From: Gemmatimonadales bacterium
Lineage (GTDB): Bacteria; Gemmatimonadota; Gemmatimonadetes; Gemmatimonadales; GWC2-71-9
Assembly: GCA_035703525.1 (NCBI GenBank)
Contig: DASSYA010000017.1
Span: forward strand, 171,304-235,303
Length of the DNA stretch: 64,000 nt
Direction: 5' to 3'
The notes under the pieces were generated by a model. The model was given only the letters and a program-made list of their open reading frames with translations. It did not search any database and was not told the origin of the DNA. A program made the translations under genes and the position numbers. Positions 5 through 58,946 of this stretch are shown here, piece after piece (within the stretch, counting starts at the first letter, position 1; every line of letters starts with the position of its first letter).

Positions 5-2776
<2,772 letters not shown>

Positions 2777-2883
2777 ACGAGAAGTGAGAAGTGAGAAGTG
2801 AGAACGTCGAAGGCCGGCATCTGTTCCTGATGCCGGCCTTCTGCAGTCCGAGGACTTCTCACTTCTCACTTCTCACTTTTCCC
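2777..2883. repeat. heptad-repeat palindromic element 1: ACGAGAA+GTGAGAAx3, central GC hairpin, then TTCTCACx3+TTTTCCC
   Basis: Read directly and cross-checked against the translation of track ORF 2791..3042. Left array is 2777-2804 and right array 2856-2883. The arms are reverse complements and sit between the acnA stop (2774-2776) and the convergent sigma stop (2886-2888). Confidence 0.9.
2809..2841. terminator. bidirectional intrinsic-terminator-like hairpin
   Basis: Perfect 13-bp stem GAAGGCCGGCATC / GATGCCGGCCTTC with a 7-nt loop TGTTCCT, between two convergent stop codons. It is flanked by pyrimidine/T-containing heptads on both transcribed strands. Confidence 0.6.
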
Positions 2884-4072: not shown

Positions 4073-5473
4073 CTACAGCGTCTTGATCTCACTGACGAGG
4101 GCGGTGAGTGACCCCTTGGCATCCCCGAACAGCATGGCGGTCCGCGGGTGGAAGAAGAGGGCATTCTCGATCCCGGCGAAGCCCGGATTCATCCCCCGCT
4201 TCATCACGATCACGCTCCGGGCCTTGTCGACGTCGAGGATCGGCATCCCGTAGATGGGGCTGGAGGGATCCGAGCGGGCCGCCGGGTTCACCACATCGTT
4301 GGCGCCGATCACCAGCGCCACGTCGCACTCCTCGAACGCGGGATTGATGTCCTCCATGTCGACCAGCTTGTCATACGGCACATTGGCCTCCGCGAGCAGG
4401 ACGTTCATGTGCCCCGGCATCCGGCCGGCGACGGGGTGGATCGCGTAGCGGACCGTGCCGCCGTTCTTCTCGATCAGGTCGGCCAGCTCCCGGACCGCAT
4501 GCTGAGCCTGGGCCACGGCGAGTCCGTAGCCGGGCACGATGATCACCTGCTGGGCGTAGGCGAGCTGGACGGCGGCGTCCTCGACGCTGACGCTGCGGGC
4601 CACGAGCCCCTCCGAACTGGCCCCACCTCCGGTCGCGGCAGCACTCCCCTGCCCGAAGGCCCCGAAGAGCACGTTCGCCAGTGAGCGGTTCATCGCCTTG
4701 CACATGATCCGGGTCAGGATGATGCCGCTCGAGCCGACCAGCGCGCCGGCGATGATCAACACGTGATTGTTGATCACGAAGCCGGTCATCGCCGCGGCGA
4801 TCCCGGAATAGCTGTTGAGGAGCGATATCACGACCGGCATGTCGGCGCCCCCGATCGGGATCACCAGCAGGACCCCGAGGAGCAGGGACAGGCCGATCAC
4901 CAGGTAGAAGGCCACCGAAAGCGGTGCCACCGTGCTCACTTGCCACCCTGCGAGGCCGATGATGCCGAGACCGATCGCGGCCGTCATCAGCTTCTGGCCG
5001 GTCCATGTGATCGCCCGGCCGGTCATCACCTCCTGCAACTTGGCCCAGGCGATCATCGAACCGCTGAATGTCACGCCACCGATCAGCAGGGAGAGCTGGA
5101 TGACGATGCCGGTCTCCATCGGGATCGCATCGCCGCGGAGCTCGGCTCGCAGGAACTCCGCCCCGGCGACCAGCACCGAGGCGGCACCCCCGAAGCCGTT
5201 GAGCAAGGCGACCAGTTGTGGCATCGAGGTCATCTGCACCGTGCGCGCCATCCAGAGGCCGATCGCACTGCCACCCACGAGGCCGATGCCGATGGCCGAC
5301 CAGCTCACGATCTGCGCATCGAGGAGGGTGACGACGATCGCGATGAGCATGCCCCACGCCGAGAGGCGATTGCCAGCCGGCGCCGTCGCAGGCGAGCCGA
5401 GCCGCTTGAGGCCGACGATGAAGCAGGCGGAGGCGAGCAGGTATCCCAGTTCCGCAAGGACGTGCGGGATCAC
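4073..5473 (-). CDS. pntB: NAD(P) transhydrogenase subunit beta
   Basis: Multi-TM N-terminal part plus C-terminal dIII NADP(H) domain (GYGLAVAQAQHAVRELADLIEKNGGTVRYAIHPVAGRMPGHMNVLLAEANVPY). Start set at GTG 5473 (VIPHVLAELGY...), which overlaps the pntAB stop as GTGA. The 100-aa track extension is rejected. Confidence 0.93.
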   Translation of the reverse strand: MIPHVLAELGYLLASACFIVGLKRLGSPATAPAGNRLSAWGMLIAIVVTLLDAQIVSWSAIGIGLVGGSAIGLWMARTVQMTSMPQLVALLNGFGGAASVLVAGAEFLRAELRGDAIPMETGIVIQLSLLIGGVTFSGSMIAWAKLQEVMTGRAITWTGQKLMTAAIGLGIIGLAGWQVSTVAPLSVAFYLVIGLSLLLGVLLVIPIGGADMPVVISLLNSYSGIAAAMTGFVINNHVLIIAGALVGSSGIILTRIMCKAMNRSLANVLFGAFGQGSAAATGGGASSEGLVARSVSVEDAAVQLAYAQQVIIVPGYGLAVAQAQHAVRELADLIEKNGGTVRYAIHPVAGRMPGHMNVLLAEANVPYDKLVDMEDINPAFEECDVALVIGANDVVNPAARSDPSSPIYGMPILDVDKARSVIVMKRGMNPGFAGIENALFFHPRTAMLFGDAKGSLTALVSEIKTL

Positions 5474-19724: not shown

Positions 19725-19856
19725 CAGGGGCGACCGCATTCAGGGGCGACCGCATTCAGGGGCGACCGTCAGGTCGCCCTCTGGATCATTGTAACAGGAA
19801 TCAGGCCCGACCGTGTTCAGGGGCGACCGCATTCAGGGGCGACCGTCAGGTCGCCC
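19725..19856. repeat. duplicated block of 16-nt direct repeats (CAGGGGCGACCGCATT) ending in hairpin GGGCGACC-GTCA-GGTCGCCC; 77-bp period
   Basis: Block A is 19725-19780 (16-mers at 19725, 19741 and 19757; hairpin at 19760-19779). Block B is 19802-19857 (16-mers at 19802 [degenerate], 19818 and 19834; hairpin at 19837-19856). Cross-checked against the translation of track ORF 19697..21148. Confidence 0.9.
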
Positions 19857-19879
19857 TCCGTATCCATGGCGGGATCCGG

Positions 19880-21115
19880 TCATTGGTCGTGCCGCACGAC
19901 CTGACGGTCGTGCCTGAAACATCGGTCATTGATCGTGCCAGAACGCCCCAACCCCGCCTCGATATCGGCCACGAGATCCTCGGCCGACTCGATCCCCACC
20001 GACAGCCGAAGCAACGAATCACTGATGCCCGCGAACGTGCGAGCCTCCGCGTCCATCGACGCGTGCGTCATGGTTGCCGGATGCGCCACCAGCGATTCGA
20101 CACCACCCAGCGACTCGGCCAACGTGAAGCATCGGAGTCCATCCAGGAAGTGCCGCACCGCGAGTTCCCCGCCCCGCAACTCGAACGAAACCATCGCCCC
20201 AAATCCGAGCTGCTGCCGGGCAGCGATCTCGTGACCGGGATGGCTCCGGAGTCCGGGATACCAGACGCGCTCGACGGCGGGATGCGCGCCCAGCGCGGCG
20301 ACCACCTCGACGGCGTTCTCCTCGTGGATCCTGGTGCGCGCGTGCAGCGTACGGATGCCGCGGAGCGTGAGGTAGCTGTCGAACGGCGCACCGGTCACAC
20401 CCAGGCAGTTGGCCCACCAGCCGAGCTCCTCGACCAGCGAGGCATCGCGGGCCACGACCGCGCCGCCCACCACGTCGCTGTGCCCATTGAGATACTTGGT
20501 CGTCGAATGCACGACGATGTCGGCACCGTGCTCGAGCGGTCGCTGCCACGCGGGCGACAGGAAGGTGTTGTCTGCCACAACCAGCGCACGGAGCGCATGA
20601 GCTTTCGCCGCAACCGCGCCGATGTCGGTGATCCTGAGCAACGGATTGCTCGGTGTCTCGATCCAGACCAGCCGCGGGCTTCGAGTGGCATCTCCGACTT
20701 CCGACTCCCGACTTCCGATTCCCTCCCCCGCGCCCCACGCACCGAGATCGACGAACTCCACGTCGAACAACCCCCGTCGACTGAGGTGCGTCAGCAGCCG
20801 ATGGGTGCCGCCGTAGCAATCGTGGGTGGCCAGGATCAGGTCACCCGGACGAACCAGCTGCAGCACCGTGGTGATCGCCGACATCCCGCTGCTCGTGATG
20901 ACGCCCCCACTCGCACCCTCGAGCTCCGCGATGGCTGCACCGAGCAGATCCCGCGTCGGGTTGCCCGAGCGCGTGTAGTCGTACGGTCGCTTGACACCGA
21001 ACCCTTCGAACGAGAAGGTCGACGAGAGATGGATCGGCGGGACCACCGCCCCGTGCTCGCGGTCGGAGCAGATGCCGGCACGGACGGCGTTGGTGACGCG
21101 GGGCTCACGCGGCAT
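19880..21115 (-). CDS. metB: cystathionine gamma-synthase / O-acylhomoserine-utilising PLP enzyme (MetB/MetZ family)
   Basis: Collinear with E. coli MetB as I remember it, with PLP-Lys motif [12 protein letters not shown] and C-terminal [12 protein letters not shown] 21115 overlaps the end of metX. MetB versus MetZ cannot be decided from sequence alone. Confidence 0.8.
20694..20721. repeat. intragenic heptad array CCGACTT-CCGACTC-CCGACTT-CCGATTC inside metB
   Basis: Coordinates derived codon by codon from the metB ORF. On the minus strand it is translated as [10 protein letters not shown]. Confidence 0.85.
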
Positions 21116-22016
21116 GGCGCACCTCGCTTTCGAGCGCGCGGTGGATGAACGCGCCGACCGACTCGACTTCCTTGAGGAAGCCATCGTGCCCGTAGATCGA
21201 TGACACGAGCTCGAGACGACATGCCGCAGTGCACTTCCGGGCCAGCTCCTCGAGCTGCCACGCCGGGACCAGCGTGTCCTCGTGGAAGCCGAGCAGGTCG
21301 AGCGGCACGGTGATCGCCGACGGGTCGACCTCGTGCAGGTCGAGTGATTCCGAGAGGGTCAGGTAGCGATCCGGCTCCCAGGTGGCGGCGAACCGCTGGC
21401 TGCCGTGATCGAGATAGCCTTCAACCGGGAATGCTCCCGAGGCCGTATCGCGCCCCGACTCGAATCGGGCCGCGAACTCCTCGGCCGTCCGGTAGGTGGT
21501 CATGCCGAGGGCACGGGCGAGTGCCACACCCTCGGTGGGGAGGCCGGCGGCGAGTCCGAGCCGGATGATCCGCCGCTGGATGACGCGGTGCGCCGTCGCC
21601 ATCGGATGGGTCTGATGCGCCGCCGCGATCACGACGAGGCGACCGACGCGCGTCGGATGACGTGCGGCGAACGCGAGCGCCACCATCCCGCCGTACGACG
21701 CGCCGACGATCGCATGGACCGCCTCACCGCCGAGCTCATCGAGGACGGTCGCGAGCTGATCGGCCTGATCGGTGGTCGTGACCGGTGCTCCGTCGGTGTG
21801 CCAGTCGATGCCGAGCACGCGCTGGCGTCTGGTGTCGACGGCGAGACCGGGACCGACGATGCCGTCCCACCAACCGGGCTGCGGATTGCTCTCGGTCTGG
21901 CAGAGATGGCGATGGGCGGAGATCCCGCCGAGCACCACCACGAGAGGGGCGTGCGGCGGGCCGGTGAGTTCCCAGGTCAGTGGTGTCGTGGGCGTGCGGG
22001 CAGTCGTGAGGGACAT
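21105..22016 (-). CDS. metX: homoserine O-acyltransferase (MetX family, short form)
   Basis: Alpha/beta hydrolase with MetX signatures PGWWDGIVGPGLAVDT, nucleophile elbow GASYGGM and C-terminal GHDGFLKE. Lies directly upstream of metB. Confidence 0.8.
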   Translation of the reverse strand: MSLTTARTPTTPLTWELTGPPHAPLVVVLGGISAHRHLCQTESNPQPGWWDGIVGPGLAVDTRRQRVLGIDWHTDGAPVTTTDQADQLATVLDELGGEAVHAIVGASYGGMVALAFAARHPTRVGRLVVIAAAHQTHPMATAHRVIQRRIIRLGLAAGLPTEGVALARALGMTTYRTAEEFAARFESGRDTASGAFPVEGYLDHGSQRFAATWEPDRYLTLSESLDLHEVDPSAITVPLDLLGFHEDTLVPAWQLEELARKCTAACRLELVSSIYGHDGFLKEVESVGAFIHRALESEVRHAA

Positions 22017-22110
22017 CGTGCGTCTCCGGCGGGTGAATGTTGCTCCACGACTCCCGGGCGGAAACGACGAACGCCCGGCGGCACGTGAAGGCCGCCAGGC
22101 GAGATACGCA
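22017..22110 (-). promoter_or_regulatory. structured 5' leader of metX-metB (candidate riboswitch/attenuator, class unknown)
   Basis: The minus-strand leader contains mutually exclusive helices: GCCTGGCGGC/GCCGCCGGGC versus CCGGGCG/CGCCCGG. The 5' segment GTGCGT..TCTC is complementary to the SD-start region GGAGACGCAC. Confidence 0.35.
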
Positions 22111-22139
22111 CTTTTAGCAGTTGTTTAACGTGGTTGCAA
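22111..22139 (-). promoter_or_regulatory. candidate sigma-70-type promoter of metX (TTGCAA-N17-TAAAAG on minus strand)
   Basis: The only AT-rich patch in this intergenic region. Hexamers lie at 22139..22134 and 22116..22111 with exactly 17-nt spacing. Confidence 0.45.
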
Positions 22140-22213
22140 GCAGCGGCAAATGACCACGGACTCCTTCGATTGTGACCGGAGGATAGATCCGGGGTTGGGC
22201 GTGGTCAAGGGAG

Positions 22214-22241
22214 GGATCGGACGTCGGAGGTCGGACGGCAG
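22214..22241. repeat. heptad array GGATCGG-ACGTCGG-AGGTCGG-ACGGCAG (left arm)
   Basis: Read directly and cross-checked with track ORF 22150..22794. It is complementary to the array at 22803-22837, with a 12-nt perfect core GTCGGAGGTCGG. Confidence 0.75.
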
Positions 22242-22309
22242 CTGCGTGGCCAGACGGTTCGGATCCAGGTCACCTATGATTCCCCGGCACCCCGTTCACG
22301 GAGCGGACC

Positions 22310-22783
22310 ATGATCCCCAGTCTCCCCACCCCTCTCGCCCCATGGGAACGGCGACTGATCCACGCCGCCTATCTCTTCGGGCTGGTGGTGGTCGGCCGCG
22401 TGGCAGCCGGCATCCTGAAGTGGATGCCGCCGGCCAGCGTCCTGATCGCACTCCAGCTCCTCGCCGCGGCAGGGGGCGTGATGTTCGTCTATCTCAGATG
22501 GTCTGCGCGTGGTCGAGCGGGTGCCCCACCGGCGTGGTTCGTGACACACGTCCTCTGGTTGATGATGTCGTTCCTCTATACCGTGGCCTGGGCGATCGGG
22601 ACGGCGGTATTCCTCTTCGGAGCCGTGGTGGTGGTCGCGACATTCCGCTCGCTCGCGGCACTGGCGGTGTATGGCCCGATCCTGGTGGCAGCCTTGATCG
22701 CGCTCTGGTTCATCTATCGAATGGTGCGGGGGTACCTGGATTACCTGCGAGAGTACCCGGCGGCGGAGATGTTGCCGCGCTGA
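22310..22783 (+). CDS. small integral membrane protein (4 predicted TM helices), function unknown
   Basis: The hydrophobic segment pattern is clear. GGAG lies 6 nt before ATG 22310. The alternative-frame 214-aa ORF (22150..22794) is Arg/Pro/Gly-rich and is rejected. Confidence 0.6.
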
Positions 22784-22802
22784 CGCCCGCGTAGATGCCG
22801 CC

Positions 22803-22837
22803 CCGACTTCCGACCGCCGACCTCCGACCGCCGACCT
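22803..22837. repeat. heptad array CCGACTT-CCGACCG-CCGACCT-CCGACCG-CCGACCT (right arm)
   Basis: Coordinates derived from the translation of track ORF 22274..22927 (...[13 protein letters not shown]...). It lies between the membrane-protein stop and the ettA start. Confidence 0.85.
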
Positions 22838-22856
22838 CCCGTTATCTTCCGCCCCC

Positions 22857-24533
22857 ATGGCCGGCGAATACATCTTCACGATGCGGGACCTCCGGAAGGT
22901 CGTCCCGCCCCAGCGCGAGATCCTCAAGGGGATCCACCTTTCCTTCTACCCGGGCGCCAAGATCGGCGTGATCGGGTCGAACGGCAGCGGCAAGTCGTCG
23001 CTCCTCAAGATCATGGCCGGAGTCGACACCGACTTCCTGGGCGAGGCGAAGCCGCTGGCGGGCACCCGGATCGGGTACCTCCCGCAGGAGCCGGTACTCG
23101 ATCCGACCAAGGATGTCCGCGGCAACGTCGAGGAGGCGCTCGCCCCCATCCGGGCGCTGCTCACCGAGTTCGAGGAGATCTCCGCGAAGTTCGCGGAACC
23201 GATGAGCGACGACGAGATGAACGCGCTGCTCGAGAAACAGGGCGCCGTGCAGGATCGGATTGACCAGGCCAACGCCTGGGAGATCGACCACACGCTCGAC
23301 ATGGCGATGGACGCCCTCCGGCTGCCGCCGGGCGATGCCGATGTCTCGACCCTCTCTGGCGGCGAAAAGCGGCGGGTGGCGCTTTGCCGGTTGTTGCTTG
23401 CCAAGCCCGAGATGCTGCTCCTCGACGAGCCGACCAATCACCTCGACGCCGAATCGGTGGCATGGCTCGAACGGTATCTGCAGGAGTTCACCGGCACCGT
23501 GGTGGCGATCACCCATGACCGCTACTTCCTCGACAACGCCGCGCAGTGGATCCTCGAGCTCGATCGGGGCGAGGGGATGCCGTACAAGGGCAACTACTCG
23601 AGCTGGCTCGACCAGAAGCAGCAGCGTCTCGCCACCGAGGAGAAGCAGGCCAGCGCTCGGCAACGCAACCTCCAACGCGAGTTGGAGTGGGTACGGCTGT
23701 CGGCGCGTGGCCGGCAGGCCAAGAGCAAGGCGCGCATCAACGCCTACGAGTCGCTGGTCGCGGCAGAGGAAAAGGCCGACAACCAGGGACACGAGATCCT
23801 GATCCCGCCGGCGCCGCGTCTGGGCGACGAAGTGGTGGTCGCCAAGAAGCTCGCCAAGGCGTACGGCGACAAGCTGCTGTTCGACAACCTCGAGTTCTCG
23901 CTGCCGCGTGGCGGCATCGTGGGCGTGATCGGTCCGAACGGCGCCGGCAAGACGACACTCTTCCGGATGATCGTGGGCCAGGAGACGCCCGACAGCGGCG
24001 AACTGGTGGTCGGTCAGACGGTGATCCCCTCGTATGTCGACCAGTCGCGCGAAGCGCTCGATCCGGAAAAGACGGTGTATCAGGAGATCGCCGGCGACTA
24101 CGACAACCTGCAGTTCGGCACCCGGACCGTGAACTCACGCGCCTATTGCGGGTGGTTCGGGTTCAAGGGCTCGGACCAGCAGAAGAAGGTCGGGACGATG
24201 TCGGGCGGCGAGCGCAATCGACTCCACCTCGCGAAGCTGCTCAAGACGGGTGGCAACCTGCTGATGCTCGACGAACCGACCAACGATCTGGACGTCGACA
24301 CCCTTCGCGCCCTCGAGGACGCGCTGCTGACCTTCTCGGGCTGCGCGGTGGTGATCTCGCACGATCGCTGGTTCCTCGACCGGATCGCGACGCACATCCT
24401 CGCGTTCGAGGGCGATTCGGAGACGGTCTGGTTCGAGGGGAACTATCAGGACTATTCCGCGGACTACAAGCGCCGGAAGGGCGTCGCGGTCGACCAGCCG
24501 CACCGGATCAAGTACCGGAAGCTGCCGACCTGA
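22857..24533 (+). CDS. ettA: energy-dependent translational throttle protein EttA (ABC-F ATPase)
   Basis: 558 aa with two ABC cassettes: Walker [10 protein letters not shown] and GPNGAGKTT, signatures LSGGEKRR and MSGGERNR. The N-terminus [18 protein letters not shown] is typical of EttA. Confidence 0.93.
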
Positions 24534-24536
24534 TAC

Positions 24537-24689
24537 GTGAGAAGCGAGAAGCGAGAAGTGAGAAGCGAGAAGTGAGAAGCGAGAAGTGAGACGCAGGAAC
24601 TCGGACGTCCACAGCGGATGGGTGTCGCAGCATCCGGAGCTTCTCGCTTCTCGCTTCTCGCTTCTCGCTTCTCACTTCTCGCTTCTCAC
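24537..24689. repeat. heptad-repeat palindromic element 2: (GYGAGAA)x8, 48-nt spacer, (TTCTCRC)x7
   Basis: Left array is 24537-24592 and right array 24641-24689. Cross-checked with track ORF 23546..24589 (...REKREARSEKREVRSEK*). It starts 3 nt after the ettA stop. Confidence 0.9.
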
Positions 24690-24721: not shown

Positions 24722-26380
24722 GTGCGCTTCCTGATCCTCGGCGCCGCGCTCGTTGCCGCCCCGCTCGCCACCACCGCCCAGACGCCCCGCGTCTTCGGCC
24801 ATGCCGACACCCTGCGCGGATCGAACGGCCCCGGGCGGGCGTGGTGGGATGCCACCTTCTATGACTTGCACGTGACGGTCAACCCCGCGGACAGCAGCGT
24901 CGGAGGCCGGAACGGCATCACCTACGAGGTCCTCGGGCGGGCCACCGAGATGCAGATCGACCTGCAGATGCCGCTCGCGGTGGACAGCATGGTCCAGGAG
25001 GGCCGCCCCCTCGTGTATCGCCGCGATGGCAACGCCTACTTCGTGACGCTCACCGCCCCACAACCGCTCGGCTCCCGCCAGACGGTCACGGTGTACTACC
25101 ATGGCAGCTTCGGGGGGGGGAGCACCACGCCCGGTCGCCGCTCGGGGCCGTTTACCTGGGCCACCGACAGCAGCGGCGCGCCCTGGTTCGCGACGGCCAA
25201 CGAAGGGCCGGGCGCCAGCACCTGGTGGCCGCTCAAGGACTTTGCGGCCGACGAGCCGGACAGCCAGCGGATCGCCATCACCGTGCCGGATCCGTTGATC
25301 AATGTCTCCAACGGTCGGCTGCGCTCGACGACCCACAACACCGATGGCACCACCACCTTCGAGTGGTTCGTCGCCAATCCGATCAACAGCTACAATGTCG
25401 CCATCAACGCGAGCCCCAACTATGTGCCGGTGCGGAGCGAGTATCTCGGGCTCCGGGGCCCCCTGACGATCGAGTTCTGGGCGCTGGCCTCGCACCGGGC
25501 CAACGCAGAGGCGCTCATCCCCGAGGTCAAGACGATGCTCGCGTGCTTCGAGCACTGGTTTGGCCCCTACCCCTGGTACCAGGATGGCTACAAGCTGATC
25601 GAGGTGCCCTACCTCGGCATGGAGCACCAGAGCGGGATCGCCTACGGCAACCAGTATCTCCGAGGCTACCTCGGGCGTGATCTGTCGAAGACCGGCGAAG
25701 GGATGAGCTGGGACTACATCGTGGTGCACGAGAGCGCCCACGAATGGTTCGGCAATAACATCAGTGCCAAGGACCATGCCGACATGTGGATCCACGAGAG
25801 CTTCGGCATGTACGCCGAGGCACTGTACCTCGAATGCACTGAGGGGAAGGAGGCCGGCGTCAACTACCTGGTCGGCGTGCGCTCCAGCATGATCAGGAAC
25901 GACACACCGATCATCGGCCAGTACGGTGTGCAGGATGTCCCTCGCTCGCAGGACCGATACCCCAAGGGCGCCAACATGCTGATGACCATGCGGGCCGTGG
26001 TAGGCGATGACACCACATGGCTCGCGACGCTCCGGGGACTCAACCAGACCTTCTGGCACCAGACCGTGACCGCGAAGCAGATCCGCGACTACATGAGCGC
26101 CTCGACGGGCGTCGACCTCAACCCGATCTTCGTGCAGTATCAGGAGACGATCAAGATCCCGGCACTCGAGTACAAGCTCGGGAACGGGTCACTCTCCTAC
26201 CGGTGGACCAATGTCGTGCCGGGATTCACCATGCCGGTCGATGTGATGGTCGGGAACCAGAGGGTGACCCGCCTTGCTCCGACCGAGCAGTGGCAGTCGA
26301 TGCCGGTCACGACCGCGGCCGGGGCGTCACTAGCCGTGATACCGGAGTACTACGTGACAACCCAGCGGGTGGAGGACTAG
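24722..26380 (+). CDS. secreted M1-family zinc aminopeptidase
   Basis: Signal peptide, GMEHQ (GAMEN-like) exopeptidase motif, and HESAHEWFGN...E zinc motif. GGAGGA lies 5 nt before GTG 24722. Confidence 0.85.
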   Translation: MRFLILGAALVAAPLATTAQTPRVFGHADTLRGSNGPGRAWWDATFYDLHVTVNPADSSVGGRNGITYEVLGRATEMQIDLQMPLAVDSMVQEGRPLVYRRDGNAYFVTLTAPQPLGSRQTVTVYYHGSFGGGSTTPGRRSGPFTWATDSSGAPWFATANEGPGASTWWPLKDFAADEPDSQRIAITVPDPLINVSNGRLRSTTHNTDGTTTFEWFVANPINSYNVAINASPNYVPVRSEYLGLRGPLTIEFWALASHRANAEALIPEVKTMLACFEHWFGPYPWYQDGYKLIEVPYLGMEHQSGIAYGNQYLRGYLGRDLSKTGEGMSWDYIVVHESAHEWFGNNISAKDHADMWIHESFGMYAEALYLECTEGKEAGVNYLVGVRSSMIRNDTPIIGQYGVQDVPRSQDRYPKGANMLMTMRAVVGDDTTWLATLRGLNQTFWHQTVTAKQIRDYMSASTGVDLNPIFVQYQETIKIPALEYKLGNGSLSYRWTNVVPGFTMPVDVMVGNQRVTRLAPTEQWQSMPVTTAAGASLAVIPEYYVTTQRVED

Positions 26381-49295: not shown

Positions 49296-49304
49296 TGCGC
49301 GACA

Positions 49305-50291
49305 TCACTCGCGACTCAGGACCACACCGAATCCGCCGAAGAACTTGCCGGTATTCGGATTGACCTCGGCGAAGCGCGTCGTGAGTGCCAGGTTCGAACC
49401 GACCTGATAGCCGCCTTCGGCCACGAACTCGAGCGGGCCGAGGTGGACCCCCAGATTCAACGCCGTGACGATCCGCATTCCCGACAACTTCGGCTCCAGG
49501 GGCGCGCCCACCACGTCGGTCCCGGGGTCGCGGTAGGCGACCTCGCCGGTGCCGGAGAGCAGATCCACGCCGGCACCGGCGGCCAGGTCGAGCCAGTCGA
49601 ATCGCTTCCCCGCGAACAGGCGCACGTCGATCGAGGAGGCGTTGAAGGTGTACGCCGTCGTGTTGCCATCCGTGGTGCCGCCAAGCTGCACCGTCGGTGT
49701 CGAGCGCTTCATGATCGTGAGCGAGACCGTCGGGAGCGTCGGGCTCGTCATCCCGAACCGGACCCCCCAGTCGAGGGTCACGGCCGCCTTGCCGATCGTC
49801 CGACTCCCCGGCACCGGGGTGAACGCCGTGGTGCGATCGCTCGGGATCACCAGCGCCGAGAACATCGCGTCGACGCCAATTGTCCCCATTGGCATCACCA
49901 TCTGGACCAGGCCGAGCGCCAGATCGACGTGTGGCGCATAGAACTGCACCCGCTGGCCGACCGCCACAGTGTCGGTGCTGCCGTCGTAGGTGAGGTCGGG
50001 GATCACCCCCGTTGCCGTGGTGGCCCGGAGCGTCACGGCGAAGTGACCGAACTTCCCGATCGGCGCCGCACTGCCGAGACGGGGATTGCCACCGTTCATG
50101 AGGAGCGCCGCGAACGGGTGGAGCATCGTCGCGCCGTCGAGCGCGGCCTGACAGACCTTGAGTCCCCCCGCCGACAGCGAGTCGGGACAGACCACGGGGA
50201 GCGCCGTGGCCGCGGTATCGGCCTGGGCCACCGCCGGAATCGGCGTCGCGGCGACGAGGAGGGCGATCAGAACGAGCTGGCGAATGGGCAC
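49305..50291 (-). CDS. hypothetical secreted/outer-membrane protein
   Basis: Signal peptide ...LVLIALLVAATPIPAVAQA. Start preferred at GTG 50291 (GGAGA 5 nt upstream). The longest-ORF ATG 50306 has no SD and lies 6 nt from the repeat array. Confidence 0.45.
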   Translation of the reverse strand: MPIRQLVLIALLVAATPIPAVAQADTAATALPVVCPDSLSAGGLKVCQAALDGATMLHPFAALLMNGGNPRLGSAAPIGKFGHFAVTLRATTATGVIPDLTYDGSTDTVAVGQRVQFYAPHVDLALGLVQMVMPMGTIGVDAMFSALVIPSDRTTAFTPVPGSRTIGKAAVTLDWGVRFGMTSPTLPTVSLTIMKRSTPTVQLGGTTDGNTTAYTFNASSIDVRLFAGKRFDWLDLAAGAGVDLLSGTGEVAYRDPGTDVVGAPLEPKLSGMRIVTALNLGVHLGPLEFVAEGGYQVGSNLALTTRFAEVNPNTGKFFGGFGVVLSRE

Positions 50292-50312
50292 GGCGTCTCC
50301 GGGCATTGGCTT

Positions 50313-50546
50313 ACGAGAAACGAGAAGCGAGAAGCGAGAAGCGAGAAACGAGAAACGAGAAACGAGAAGCGAGAGACGAGACGAGACGAGAAACGAGAAA
50401 CGGGAGACGGGAGACGAGAGACGGGAGACGGGAGACGGGAGACGGGAGACGCGAGCAAGGTAATGGAACGTGTTTGGAGACAGGCGTCACGCTTCTCGCT
50501 TCTCACTTCTCATTTCTCGCTTCTCGCTTCTCGCTTCTCGCTTCTC
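50313..50546. repeat. heptad-repeat palindromic element 3 (expanded, asymmetric): 19 heptads + 2 pentamers, AT-richer spacer, 8 heptads
   Basis: Left array is 50313-50455 (ACGAGAA/GCGAGAA, then ACGGGAG variants). Right array is 50491-50546 (GCTTCTC/ACTTCTC/ATTTCTC). Verified against the translation of track ORF 50306..50572. The right array runs into the TAA stop (50550-50552) of the upstream minus-strand gene. Confidence 0.92.
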
Positions 50547-50549
50547 GCT

Positions 50550-51581
50550 TTACAGCCCTGCCCGCACAATAATCCGATACGACAGCTCCCACGGCGTCCC
50601 GAAGAACGCCTCGCTCTGTTCACTGTCGATCCGATGGAATCGCACTTCGGTGTCGAACGAGACGCCCGTGCTGGCGTCGCCGAAGCGGCGCCATGCACCG
50701 AGTTCGGTGTACCGGCGCTCGGCACGGTAGACGCCCGGCGTATGCCCCACGGAGCCGTAGTTGGCATCCCCGGCGGCGGCCGCGAAGTCCTGACCTCGCC
50801 AATGGATCACGAAGAGCGCCCAGAGTGGCCACGGATTCACCTCACCACGAAGCCATGTCCCCGACCCGCCGCGCGGTTGGTCGGTCGGGTAGGCCGGGTC
50901 GAGGTGCCCGTCGCTCCAGAGTCTCGCCGCCTGGACGCTGCCGTGCCGGACGATCGGGAGCGAACCTGACAAGGTCGCACCGAGTGCCGTGACGCGGTTG
51001 TTGGTCACCGGGACACCGGCATCGAACAACTGCCCGCCGTGATGCGACCAGAGGTGTTGGGCGTCGATGCTGAGGCCGCGCACCGGACGAACGCGTGCAA
51101 CGATGCCCATCTCGAACGCCTCACGCTGCGCCGGTGTATTCAGTCGCTGCCAGTTGATCCACGCCTCGGCGTCGAGCCGTTCGCGGCGTTCGCGCCACTG
51201 CAGGCCATACTCGATCGGCGTCGTGAGCTCGCGTGTGCTGACCATCAGTGGGTCAATGAGGCCGTGTCGACGCGTGTTCTCGAGGGTGCCGATCACACCC
51301 AGGGAATGCGGGGTCGTGTAGCGGGCGGCGAGGATCGGCTTGAGCGAGTCGGTGAACTCCTCGCTGCCCCAGCGACGGTCGGCGAAGACGCCCAGGCGGA
51401 GCGCCAGGTGACCGGTCGCCTGCCCGGAGATCCAGCCCTGCACCTGTCCACCGAGAATCGTCTCGCCGACACGGTACGGGGTGAAGAATTCGGTGTTGTC
51501 GCCGTAGAGCGTGGCGCGGAGCTGCCAGTCGATCCGCTGTGCGCCGAGGATGGGGCACGCGAGGGCCAGCAGGAGGATCAC
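50550..51581 (-). CDS. hypothetical secreted protein
   Basis: The only in-frame start near the hydrophobic N-terminus is GTG 51581 (M-ILLLALACPILGAQ). No family recognised. The start is uncertain. Confidence 0.4.
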   Translation of the reverse strand: MILLLALACPILGAQRIDWQLRATLYGDNTEFFTPYRVGETILGGQVQGWISGQATGHLALRLGVFADRRWGSEEFTDSLKPILAARYTTPHSLGVIGTLENTRRHGLIDPLMVSTRELTTPIEYGLQWRERRERLDAEAWINWQRLNTPAQREAFEMGIVARVRPVRGLSIDAQHLWSHHGGQLFDAGVPVTNNRVTALGATLSGSLPIVRHGSVQAARLWSDGHLDPAYPTDQPRGGSGTWLRGEVNPWPLWALFVIHWRGQDFAAAAGDANYGSVGHTPGVYRAERRYTELGAWRRFGDASTGVSFDTEVRFHRIDSEQSEAFFGTPWELSYRIIVRAGL

Positions 51582-51619
51582 GCGAAGGGCGACGGACCGG
51601 ATCGAGTGTGAAATGCGGC

Positions 51620-54600
51620 TCAGCCGATCTCGCCCTGCAGCTTGGCGATCCGGTCGCGGATCTCGCGCACCCGCGGTTGGAGCTTCGGGTCGGCGTTGGC
51701 CCAGAGTTCGGTGAACTGACTGTAGTAGTCGATGGCCTTGGCCTTGTTGCCCTTGTTCTCGTAGGCCTCGCCGAGGCGCTCCAGGATCTTGGCACGCCAC
51801 TGCCCGTCCGTGCCAGGCAAGGCTGCGGGTGTCGCCAGGAACTTCTCGTAGTAGACAATCACCGAATCCGTGCGCCCCAGTTCGAGGTGTGCGTTGCCAC
51901 GGACAAGGTCAGCGATGCGGGGCTCGAATGAGAACAGGCGTTCCGCCTGGTCGGCATACCGAATGGCATCTTCCCAACGCCCTTCCGCCATCGCGAGGTG
52001 CGCGGCATAGTCCGCGCGGCGACCCTCTGCATCCGAGGAGAAGCTGACCTGATCGCGCTCGAACCCGGCCATCGCTTCGCGCACCAGCGTCGGTTCCCTG
52101 AGGATGGCCCCGACGAACTTGATGAAGCCCCACGGCCGCTCGACTGGCGGGATCTCGGTCATCGGCACACGCGCCCGGGCCCGGGCGAGCGCGGCCAGCG
52201 TACTGGCCTTGGTGCCATACATCAGTTCGTAGTACACCGTGTCGAGCCCGATGCTCAGCAGGTTGCCGGGAGTCGGCTGCACCTTGTAGAGCGCGGCACT
52301 GTTTCTGGCCTGCCACCGCGCCGCCTCGGCGATCTGGCCACGCATCTCGGCGGTGGCCGTCAGCGCAGCGGTTGACCGGATCGCCTGCCGAACGGTCTTC
52401 GCCGAGGCGTCCACCGCGCGCGCGATCGAATCGGCTCCGGCGACATCCCCCTTCCCCCAGGCGACAAACCACTGCGCTTCCCAGAAGTCGTTGCTCTCCC
52501 CGAACGTGTTCCGGAAGGATGTGAGGGTGGAGTCGAGCGCGGCGCCCGAGCGGCCATTCAGGATTTGTGTCGTGATCAGGTTCGTGAACGCGCCACCGAA
52601 GGTATGCGGCAACCGGACCACGCGACGATAGAGTTCCTCGGCGCGGATGTCGTCGTTCATCTCACCCAGGATGACGGCCGCATTGTTGAGGGCCGAGGTG
52701 CTCAGGGTATCGAGCTTGGCGGCGGCCTCGTACGCGGCAAGCGCCTTCTCGCGATCGGGCGTCGGTCCCCGCGTATAGTAGAACCCCTCGGTGAGGAGGC
52801 GCTCCATCTCGGTCAGGCGGTCGCGGTGTCGATAGGCGGTCGAGATCGCGTTGATCATGCCGACCTGATCCCGACCCTCGTTGTTGAGCAGCACCGACAG
52901 CTTGCGCCATGCCATCGCGAACGACGTGTCGATGGTGACCGCCTCCCGGATCAACTCCATGCCGCGCTCGTTCTCGCCCTCCTCGTCGGCAAGGCGCGAG
53001 CCCTCGACGTACTTGCGGAGCGCGGCGAGCGAGGGGGTGGTGACCCGCTCGAGTTCGTTGCTCGCGCGGATCGACTTGAGCGACTCCCCGGCCTTGGCGC
53101 GGACGGCCTTCGACAAACGGCCGAGCGCCGGGAGGATCTCGTCCTCGTTGGACGCCTCCTCGCGGAACGAGGCGAGATCGGCGCCATCGAGGGCCGAGGC
53201 CAGCCGCGCCGTGATGACGTAACTCTTGCCGATCTCCGCAATGCCGCCATCGAGCACCGCCTTGGCGCCCTCACGCGTGGCGATCTCGCGGGCCAGGGCA
53301 TAGGGGACCGCCTCGTCCGGGGAGCGCTGCATCAGGGTGAGCGCCTCGCGGATTGCCGAGCGGGTCAGGACCGTGAGTGAGGTCGACTGCGCAAGATCGG
53401 TACGAAGTGCTTCAGCGACGGTGCCGCCGAGCGTCGAATCGCTGGGTGGCGAGGTGAAATCCGCGATCATCAGCGTCTCGCGATCACCGAAGGCGCCCTT
53501 CCCCTGGAGCGAGGCCATCGGCCCGATCCCCATCGCGCGCATCACCATGAACGCGAGGACCACGACGGCGAAGCCACCGACGGCGAACGCACCACCGAGC
53601 CAGGTGCGCCGCCACGAGACATGCGGACTCGCCTTCATCGCAAGCGTTGCCATCGTGCCCTGCGGGGATGGCGTGCGATTGGGTGTTGCGGTGAACGCCT
53701 TGTGCGTGGTCCGCTGGACGTAGGCCGTGAAGAGCAGCACCGGCAAGCCCGCGAGCATGACGCCGACCGCGCCGGGGAGGACCCAGTCGGGCAGGCCGAT
53801 CGCCTCACGAGCGGCCCACGCCGTCAGGGCGACGACGATCGTGGCGAAGGCCCAGAGTGCCACCGCGCGGCCGAGGCGGATCGGACCTCCACGCAGGATC
53901 TCGGGCACCGTCGCCCCGCTGCCGCTCGAGGTGATCGTGTCGAGGACCTGCACCAGCTCCGCGGAATCCCGGGGCCGGTCCTGGGGCTCCTTCTCGAGGC
54001 AGCGCATGACGAGGGCGGCGAGCGCGGGCGGGCAATCGGGGCGGAGTCCGAGAATATCCGGCGCGGGCTCCGTCATGTGCGCAGCGAGCAATTTCGTTGG
54101 CGTGGCAGCCACAAACGGTGTCCGGCCGGCCAGTGTCTCGAAGGCCATTACACCGAAGGCGTAGAGATCGGCGCGGTGGTCGGTGTCGGGATCGCCGGCG
54201 GCCTGTTCGGGTGCCATGTAGGCAGGCGTCCCGATCGAGGTGCCGACCTGGGTCAGCGCCTCGCCGTGGTCACCACCAGTGCGCGCAGCGTTGATCGCCT
54301 TGGCAATCCCGAAGTCGGTGACCGTGGCGCTCCCGGCCGAGAGGAGGACATTGTCAGGCTTGATGTCGCGGTGGACGATCCCCTGGGCATGGGCATAGGC
54401 GAGGGCCCGCGCCACGTCACGGAGGATGCTGACGGCCTCCCCGATCCCGACACCGCCCTTGGCCAGCCGATGGCGGAGCGAATCGCCATCGACATACGGC
54501 ATCGTGAACCAGGGGATGCCGCCGACATCGCCGGTGGTGAGCACCGGCACCACATGGGGATGCTGGAGCTGGGCGGCGAGGAGCACCTCGCGGCGAAAGC

Positions 54601-58938: not shown

Positions 58939-58946
58939 TCCCGCAG

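Follow-up and report, generated by a model that had tools for sequence, protein, structure and literature searches.

The window, the stretch of 64,000 nucleotides (nt) analysed here, comes from a contig of a Gemmatimonadales bacterium (DASSYA010000017.1). Near its left end, a palindrome with arms of tandem 7-nt units, element 1, fills the space between two genes that converge on it. Pfam identified the gene to its left as an aconitase gene (acnA) and the gene to its right as a member of the sigma-70 family. Homologues identify the latter more closely as the gene for the primary sigma factor RpoD/SigA, whose product is 100% identical to a protein from a Gemmatimonadales metagenome-assembled genome. 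Both arms of element 1 have a period of 7 and 100% identity in TRF, and they enclose a core hairpin with the stem strands GAAGGCCGGCATC and GATGCCGGCCTTC. An earlier note, made from the sequence alone, had given coordinates for these arms and for the core hairpin, all of which were verified. It had also placed the stop codon of the sigma gene just past the element, which is correct, at a gap of 3 nt, where the real gap is 2 nt. Element 1 belongs to a clade-wide family of heptamer-armed palindromes, and elements 2 and 3 of the same window are further copies (Table 1).

Table 1. Positions of the heptamer-armed elements, their parts and the adjoining features in the window
Feature	Positions	Strand	Evidence or remark
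acnA stop codon, TAG	2774–2776	+	Left arm of element 1 begins at the next base
Element 1, purine-rich left arm, ACGAGAA + 3 × GTGAGAA	2777–2804		TRF, pattern search
Element 1, core GC hairpin, 13-bp perfect stem, 7-nt loop	2809–2841		Sequence, fold, orthologues
Element 1, pyrimidine-rich right arm, 3 × TTCTCAC + TTTTCCC	2856–2883		TRF, pattern search
rpoD/sigA stop codon (primary sigma factor; real length 297 amino acids)	2886–2888	−	Pfam, homologues
Second unit family, left array, GGACGTC GGAGGTC GGACGGC	22214–22239		Left breakpoint of a 0.6-kb inversion
Second unit family, right array, CCGACYN × 5	22803–22839		Inverted relative to 22214–22239; right inversion breakpoint
Element 2, left arm, 8 units GYGAGAA	24537–24592		Starts 3 nt after the ettA stop (24531–24533)
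Element 2, unique centre	24593–24638		Unrelated to the other two centres
Element 2, right arm, 7 units RCTTCTC	24639–24689		Orthologous in L239
Element 3, left arm, long composite: blocks of ACGAGAA, GCGAGAA, ACGAG, ACGGGAG	50313–50455		TRF, fold
Element 3, right arm, ~9 units GCTTCTC	50490–50549		TRF, fold

All three elements fold strongly. The folding of element 1 as a palindrome, proposed earlier, was confirmed by its energies as RNA on the + strand (−77.7 kcal/mol, z = −12.3) and the − strand (−77.8 kcal/mol, z = −10.9), and the + strand also folds stably as DNA (−43.9 kcal/mol, z = −10.9). As RNA, element 2 reaches −112.5 kcal/mol on the + strand (z = −11.3) and element 3 −121.3 kcal/mol on the − strand (z = −12.6). 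The intergenic regions of elements 1 and 2 show the strongest folding per nucleotide in the window, and have its lowest GC content. In element 1, a GC-rich stem-loop past a stop codon, as expected of a terminator, is present in the form of the 13-bp stem, which lies between two stop codons and is kept in orthologues. Element 1 is a conserved GC hairpin where acnA and rpoD converge with their 3′ ends, and it has the position and shape of a bidirectional terminator.

The pattern GAGAAGYGAGAAG, searched with at most one mismatch, had 31 matches in the window, every one of them within elements 1–3, where shuffled sequences lead one to expect 0.07. Element 2 follows an ABC-F gene identified as ettA, and 32 nt separate the end of its right arm from the start of an M1 peptidase gene (GTG at 24722). 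The left arm of element 3 starts 6 nt from the start codon (50304–50306, − strand) of an open reading frame (ORF) at 49305–50306, and its right arm abuts the stop codon (50550–50552, − strand) of ORF 50550–51800, whose product resembles a secreted protein. The recurrence near stop codons reported earlier for 24537–24689 and 50313–50546 was confirmed, at distances of 3 nt and 0 nt, respectively. The arms of element 3 are unequal, with about 20 units on the left against the nine or so on the right. The centres of the three elements are mutually unrelated, and only the repeat unit is common to them. No direct repeats that could be target-site duplications flank any of the three. The window also holds a second heptamer unit family, GGTCGGR.

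The synteny of rpoD and acnA is kept in relatives, which allowed the orthologous site to be compared among individual loci (designated by L-numbers, L128 and L237 being from one contig). At this site, three lineages have the core hairpin, GAAGGCCGGC...GCCGGCCTTC. The hairpin bears a paired change, GGCATC/GATGCC in the window being replaced by GACATC/GATGTC in L120. The arms around it are built from different units: GTGAGAA in the window, ACGAGAA/GCGAGAA in L120 and L122, and GAGTCGT in L128–L135, where the TGA stop is in phase with the GAGTCGT array. Since orthologues share the C-terminus of AcnA (...LRLFNE*), the stop codon that the arrays abut is the native one. At the rpoD/acnA site of more distant lineages (L154–L156, whose sigma factor is 88% identical, and L121), arrays are absent and TTTT(T) follows an ordinary GC stem.

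Closely related strains differ at this site while the gene beside it hardly does. L120 and L122 are identical at 894 of 894 bases of rpoD and at 99.6–99.7% of the flanks, and nevertheless carry 4 versus 6 and 3 versus 4 units in their arms. The central 61 nt are reverse-complemented between the two, matching at 55 of 61 positions when reversed and at 40 of 61 in the forward orientation. The centre of L136 is likewise flipped relative to the L128 group, with which it shares 99.2–99.6% identity in rpoD, and L133 has 4 units where L128 has 3, one more than its near-identical relatives. An assembly artefact is an unlikely cause of the flips and unit differences, because the arms (28–45 nt) and the elements (about 100–115 nt) are shorter than typical reads and assembly k-mers. 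Growth of the arms by slippage, suggested in the earlier note, is supported by changes of whole 7-nt units between near-identical strains (3 versus 4, 4 versus 6 and, ahead of ettA, 5 versus about 19). As a separate observation, two short-read contigs (L123 and L125) end within a heptamer array 32 nt past the rpoD stop, which is consistent with multi-copy arrays breaking assemblies.

Around ettA, an arm has been swapped and a gene-bearing segment inverted in L239. In this relative, whose EttA is 99% identical, the right arm of element 2 is retained unit for unit, while (GAAGTCG)4, an array of the second unit family, stands in the place of its left arm and centre. The units past the ettA stop of L237 are TGAGTCG/TGAGTCC, a family that recurs at the rpoD site of the same genome (L128). 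Two genomes thus show co-variation of the unit family at rpoD and ettA, with GAGAAGY at both in the window and TGAGTCS at both in L128/L237. At the element 2 site past ettA, L238 and L240 have an unrelated REP-like palindrome.

Upstream of ettA, a hydrophobic ORF of 157 amino acids (ORF157, 22310–22783) lies between inverted GGTCGGR arrays (22213–22827) and has no match in Pfam. The ORF157 segment is inverted in L239 (1770–2385), with 90% identity when reversed, collinear flanks of 92–98% identity and breakpoints within the arrays; it is absent from L237, L238 and L240. The left of these arrays starts just past the −35-like TTGACC (22203–22208) of a riboswitch/metX promoter, and the right one ends at a conserved TTATCTTC box ahead of ettA. 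Ahead of ettA, L239 has an array of about 19 units where the window has 5.

Several other features of this neighbourhood deserve mention. The TTATCTTC box contains a −10-like TATCTT, occupies 22841–22859 of the window, 5–8 nt before the ettA start, and is found at the same place in L157–L169 and L237–L240. Together with the lack of a Shine–Dalgarno sequence at ettA, it suggests that the ettA mRNA may be leaderless or have a very short leader. A match to the SAM_alpha riboswitch (22094–22167, − strand; 40.9 bits against a gathering score of 36), here in Gemmatimonadales although the family is named for Alphaproteobacteria, lies upstream of a gene pair encoding an alpha/beta-hydrolase (MetX-like) and a MetY-like protein, and is preceded by a promoter-like site, TTGACC-17-TATCCT (22208–22180, − strand). 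Within the MetY-like gene, which encodes a pyridoxal-phosphate enzyme of Cys/Met metabolism (ORF 19880–21184, − strand), a GGAAGTC-family array (20693–20722) encodes the sole hypervariable stretch of the protein (about residues 150–170), the rest being about 95% identical to the L240 orthologue. Two blocks of tandem 16-nt repeats, CAGGGGCGACCGCATT, lie at 19725–19870, and a hairpin, GGCGACCGTCAGGTCGCC, comes after each block. Related palindromes (GGGGCGACCGTGAGGTCGCCC...) are present at the ettA 3′ site of L238 and L240, and the repeat with its palindromes looks like a separate REP-like family. In L237, a palindrome of about 70 nt, TGTCACCCCGAGCCGNAGGCGAGGGGGCGG...CCGCCCCNTCGCTGCGCTCNGGGTGACA, multi-copy and intergenic, occurs both upstream (about 2330–2470) and downstream (about 4235–4310) of ettA. 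HicA/HicB toxin–antitoxin genes follow ettA in L237 (4317–4714) and L240 (5993–6193), where the window has the M1 peptidase gene directly.

Heptamers dominate the tandem repeats of this clade. The census covered 694 kb of DNA selected by protein and not by repeats, namely the window and the rpoD and ettA loci of relatives, and arrays were counted from 21 nt, 3 units and 85% identity upwards. Period 7 accounted for 50 of the 64 tandem arrays, each other period for 1–5, and all 15 inverted array pairs had a period of 7. The arrays have the properties of long simple sequence repeats (SSRs): heptamers repeated head to tail beyond chance, an over-representation of period 7 against neighbouring periods and a copy number that varies among close relatives. 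The unit differs by genome, examples being TTCCGAG, GGTGAAG, GCAGCGG and AGATTTC. Units were shared in 4 of 12 array pairs on the same contig and in 5.8% of those between contigs, a weak comparison in which three of the four shared pairs come from the window, itself picked for the feature.

A scan of one genome per species detected three tandem GAGAAGY units at at least 119 loci. Gemmatimonadota contributed 24 loci in 17 genomes among the matches listed, and the other listed loci were spread over Acidobacteriota, Planctomycetota, Bacteroidota, Verrucomicrobiota and Proteobacteria. The paired layout was seen at many listed loci, such as three elements within 8 kb of Lamprocystis purpurea. The element had been described as lineage-specific; in the narrow sense it is not, since the GAGAAGY unit is found in the same paired arrangement in several phyla.

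Two candidate rules were rejected. A TGA stop in all frames is not a general property of the units: (TGAGAAG)n has one, like the TAACTGA repeats, but RCGAGAA, TTCCGAG and GGGAATC lack any. A special tie to ettA was not significant, with 9 elements adjoining ettA and 1 elsewhere at 80 ettA loci, against a rough background of 68 intergenic regions of at least 60 nt adjoining ettA and 37 others. Past the stop of the ettA orthologue, L161 and L162 have arrays of 8-nt units in place of heptamers, (ACGGTAAG)n with an inverted partner in L161 and (GCGGGACA)8 in L162.

The position of the elements follows the ends of genes. Gene calls came from simple ORF rules and the GC content of third codon positions (GC3), and element boundaries were tested directly for ORFs ending or starting there. 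The stop-codon placement that the earlier note had proposed was upheld: 29 of 66 boundaries (33 elements) lay no more than 12 nt from the stop of a long, high-GC3 ORF reading inward, compared with 1.7% of random positions. In a more sensitive set of 69 elements, the median distance on the stop side was 0 nt, with 56 of 68 at 12 nt or less, and the median on the start side was 32.5 nt. Arrays facing start codons stop at promoter-like boxes. Forty elements could be classified by their neighbours, of which 21 lie between two stops, 16 between a stop and a start and 3 between two starts; for comparison, the intergenic regions of at least 30 nt in the window comprise 3 convergent, 15 co-directional and 3 divergent ones.

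The arms also have a polarity. Of 41 GAGAAG-type elements, 40 carry the pyrimidine-rich arm on the 3′ side (p = 4e-11), and in 39 of the 41 the 3′ arm contains more T than A. Other units with a strong purine/pyrimidine skew behave alike, the pyrimidine arm being 3′ in 7 of 8. Because an element reads alike on both strands, the polarity applies to transcription from either side. A U-rich 3′ arm as a universal rule was rejected, since it fails for unskewed units (12 versus 15), in which there is no polarity to be measured.

Taken together, these data make it probable that the elements are bidirectional terminator-type hairpins whose heptamer arms grow by slippage and are exchanged through inversion and ectopic recombination. 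We are confident of the part of this proposal that concerns what the element is and how it evolves, whereas its role as a terminator or mRNA stabiliser is a tentative suggestion. Arrays gain and lose whole 7-nt units, presumably by replication slippage. The interior of the palindrome flips between strains, and once an arm was found replaced by an array of another locus's unit family. Such flips and ectopic exchanges between arrays would maintain the likeness of the two arms and spread unit families to further loci. The arrays fill all unconstrained intergenic DNA and end at promoter boxes or stop codons. Once transcribed, the arms would lengthen the core stem to a hairpin of 25 to 60 bp or more with a pyrimidine/U-rich 3′ arm. 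The hybrid of an RNA pyrimidine tract with a DNA purine tract is weak, so the pyrimidine 3′ arm may replace the U-tract, which is mostly lacking in this GC-rich genome. The near-constant 3′ location of the pyrimidine arm is the polarity that a substitute for the U-tract would need, and the window contains 8 classical terminators with a hairpin and a T-run, against about 16 expected from shuffled sequences, none of them at the elements. The symmetric layout would serve both converging genes, and the hairpin would also shield the 3′ end from exonucleases.

Several observations weigh against this proposal, mostly against the functional part of it. No T-run directly follows the core stem of element 1, which continues with TGCAGTCC on one strand and GACGTTCT on the other, and a scan for consensus terminators flagged none of the elements; past the outer stem, the only T-run is TTTT at 2877–2880 on the + strand. 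A strong core hairpin is missing from elements 2 and 3, which sit just upstream of the start of the next gene, where a strong terminator would block an operon. At element 2, the fold in L239 falls to −31.5 kcal/mol from −112 kcal/mol in the window with the gene order unchanged, and this loss of most of the pairing implies that this locus can do without the long stem. Divergent starts flank three elements. Two convergent gene pairs of the window (49296–49304 and 58939–58946) have 8–9 nt between their stops, which leaves no room for a terminator hairpin, so that one is not needed everywhere. A test for constraint on RNA, based on G·U pairs, at first had the sense strand folding better in 10 of 13 elements, but in a larger set it revealed no asymmetry (13 versus 11, p = 0.42). 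Moreover, flips and arm exchange can maintain the complementarity of the arms without selection on pairing.

These points lead to the alternative that the arrays are neutral or selfish space-fillers, slippage-prone satellites that nucleate on existing terminator palindromes, with the stem itself not under selection. We regard this as unlikely, though worth serious attention. Their position and polarity would then reflect tolerance and seeding, with the A-tracts and T-tracts beside bidirectional terminators as one possible seed. Such fillers could be expected to halt at any functional boundary, as the arrays do at stop codons, at the −35-like box (22203–22208) and at the TTATCTTC box, and the turnover of the arrays is extreme compared with the flanking genes. 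The lost pairing of element 2 in L239, the very unequal arms of element 3, the array inside a coding loop, the null G·U test and the unrelated REP-like palindromes or ordinary terminators that relatives hold at the same sites all fit this account. However, a polarity of 40 in 41 and a convergent-to-divergent excess of 21:3 are hard to obtain from tolerance alone, and in most copies the arms are nearly perfectly complementary despite their lineage-specific units. It also leaves unexplained why some hairpin is present at each orthologous gene end examined.

Enzymatic spread is less probable still. A bacterial foldback-like system, in which a trans-acting recombinase, transposase or templated polymerase writes a genome-specific unit onto intergenic sites, seems rather improbable to us; such an activity could homogenise the unit across loci and invert or mobilise the interior, including the ORF157 cassette, and its footprints would be the co-variation of units, the arm swap in L239, the strain flips and the recurrence of unit and polarity in several phyla. 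Slightly less credible again is a mobile element proper, with palindromes or arrays moved by a trans-acting enzyme of the REPIN/RAYT, miniature inverted-repeat transposable element (MITE) or foldback type and the inverted arrays as its termini. One unit is found at three sites in 64 kb, at two in L164 and at three in L052, unit families co-vary between rpoD and ettA within genomes, the GAGAAGY unit and architecture recur in several phyla, and the array–ORF157–array unit, absent from L237, L238 and L240, is inverted between its two carriers, the window and L239. On the other hand, the three window copies have unrelated centres and no target-site duplications, the centre at rpoD/acnA is the orthologous resident hairpin, around which the arms must have been added, and no transposase was identified among the 10 of about 47 window ORFs scanned. 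The arm swap in L239 is more simply explained by ectopic recombination between arrays. Assignment to the MITE/foldback class was rejected on the missing flanking direct repeats, the unrelated centres and the presence or absence of the ORF157 segment without clean boundaries. Very unlikely, in our view, is a function at the level of DNA, in which the palindromes would be sites of cruciform formation or recombination, serving as invertible switches or as arrays that bind proteins. The flipped interiors in two lineages of element 1, the inverted gene-bearing 0.6-kb segment, the stable DNA hairpin and the absence of an RNA-specific signal in the G·U test would suit it, but flipping a near-symmetric hairpin alters almost nothing, units that differ by lineage at one site argue against a sequence-specific binding protein, and the biases of position and polarity follow transcription units. 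Least credible of all is a G-quadruplex or i-motif, triplex DNA or a CU-rich arm as a loading (rut) site for Rho. The arms are nearly homopurine/homopyrimidine, and the 3′ arm is C-rich and G-poor like rut sites, but Rho needs unstructured RNA, and the predicted folds pair the whole CU arm with the GA arm. A quadruplex, an idea offered for the GGGAATC repeats of Xanthomonas (PMC4692102), is impossible for GAGAAGY, in which no two G are adjacent. H-DNA requires a mirror repeat, which this unit is not, and the triplex motif of PMC4666352 is a different, G/C-rich sequence.

The bidirectional terminator-type hairpin with slippage-grown arms can also be set beside known systems. The earlier note had not recognised a named repeat family. 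Elements 1–3 have indeed no Rfam match at the gathering score, permissive scans returning only sub-threshold models of eukaryotic microRNA precursors (for example, 31 bits against 90 and 59 against 168), but the architecture has been described in Xanthomonas (Rehm et al. 2015, PLoS One, PMC4692102). There, GGGAATC heptamers form arrays of 2–26 units, about 185 per genome, of which 89–93% are intergenic; the upstream ORF ends 28 nt before them on average, and the next ORF is far away. They include 70–75 convergent array pairs per genome with the purine-rich strand first, which could form a stem-loop, and are scarce between divergent genes (7–8%). The same source states that their length and sequence vary at the same sites among related genomes, that they are transcribed and that their function is unexplained. 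Our elements resemble the Xanthomonas pairs in that one unit forms two neighbouring arrays, which lie on opposite strands and converge, purine then pyrimidine in 40 of 41, and in being intergenic, nearer the end of the upstream ORF and rare in divergent contexts (3 of 40). They differ in the GAGAAGY-type unit without G-runs, to which the G-quadruplex reading does not apply, in the phylum, Gemmatimonadota, and in abutting the stop codon (median 0 nt, compared with a mean of 28 nt). As far as we could find, the strain flips, the arm swap and the unit co-variation have not been reported for such repeats.

Heptanucleotides are by far the commonest period among the long SSRs of prokaryotes, and polymerase slippage was proposed for their excess (Mrazek, Guo and Shah 2007, as cited in PMC4692102 and PMC4679880). 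Other examples are the (GGGACCG)4 elements of Geobacter (PMC2700814) and the TAACTGA repeats of Beggiatoaceae, which lie upstream of start codons (PMC4679880). The elements described here resemble other heptamer SSRs in that one or a few units recur at many intergenic sites of a genome with varying copy number. Unlike most of them, which are single direct arrays, they are inverted pairs around a unique centre at gene 3′ ends. The STRR heptamers of cyanobacteria, reportedly treated by Mazel et al. in 1990, are said to be another such case.

With bidirectional intrinsic terminators, the elements share the location between convergent stops, the GC hairpin and the pairing of purine/A-rich 5′ with pyrimidine/U-rich 3′ flanks, and relatives bear a canonical terminator at the same site. 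They are unlike them in lacking a U-tract beside the core stem, in their long periodic flanks and in the copies just before starts (elements 2 and 3). Like REP/BIME/REPIN, Correia and ERIC sequences, they are extragenic, multi-copy, hairpin-forming, genome-specific and often right after stops, and REP-like palindromes replace them at the same sites in relatives. Elements of the REP type are thought to stabilise upstream mRNA, and REPs within 15 nt of a stop codon reportedly affect translation termination, a finding said to be that of Liang, Rudd and Deutscher in 2015. The earlier view that the elements are not REP/BIME-like is supported by the absence of a palindromic core common to the three copies, which share the repeat unit alone. 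Their arms, in contrast to REP/BIME, are variable-number tandem repeats, and no RAYT was found, none having been sought genome-wide. Nor are they CRISPR-like, as the same note had held: a CRISPR array consists of direct repeats of 23–50 nt with unique spacers of similar length, whereas here 7-nt units run head to tail without spacers in two inverted arrays. The foldback (FB) transposons of Drosophila and other eukaryotes have long inverted arms of short tandem repeats and a variable centre and promote inversions. Our elements are similar in their tandem-repeat inverted arms, in a centre that may carry genes and in the inversions. They differ in that FB transposons are eukaryotic, much larger and have been shown to transpose, while there is no evidence of transposition here.

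The palindromes are real, far beyond chance and part of a widespread phenomenon, a class that is described but mechanistically unexplained. The function and spread of heptanucleotide repeats have remained unexplained since 2007 in Xanthomonas, cyanobacteria, Beggiatoaceae and Geobacter. A unit that is not G-rich removes the G-quadruplex explanation for the paired architecture, and the abutment to stops, the purine 5′ and pyrimidine 3′ arms and the preference for convergent genes are rules that point to transcript 3′ ends. The metagenomic strain series shows unit change, inversion, arm replacement and co-variation while the neighbouring gene is unchanged, and the strain-level flips, arm swap and co-variation offer a practical handle on how such repeats spread. 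If the arms do act as substitutes for the U-tract, this would help to explain how transcription terminates in GC-rich bacteria with few classical terminators.

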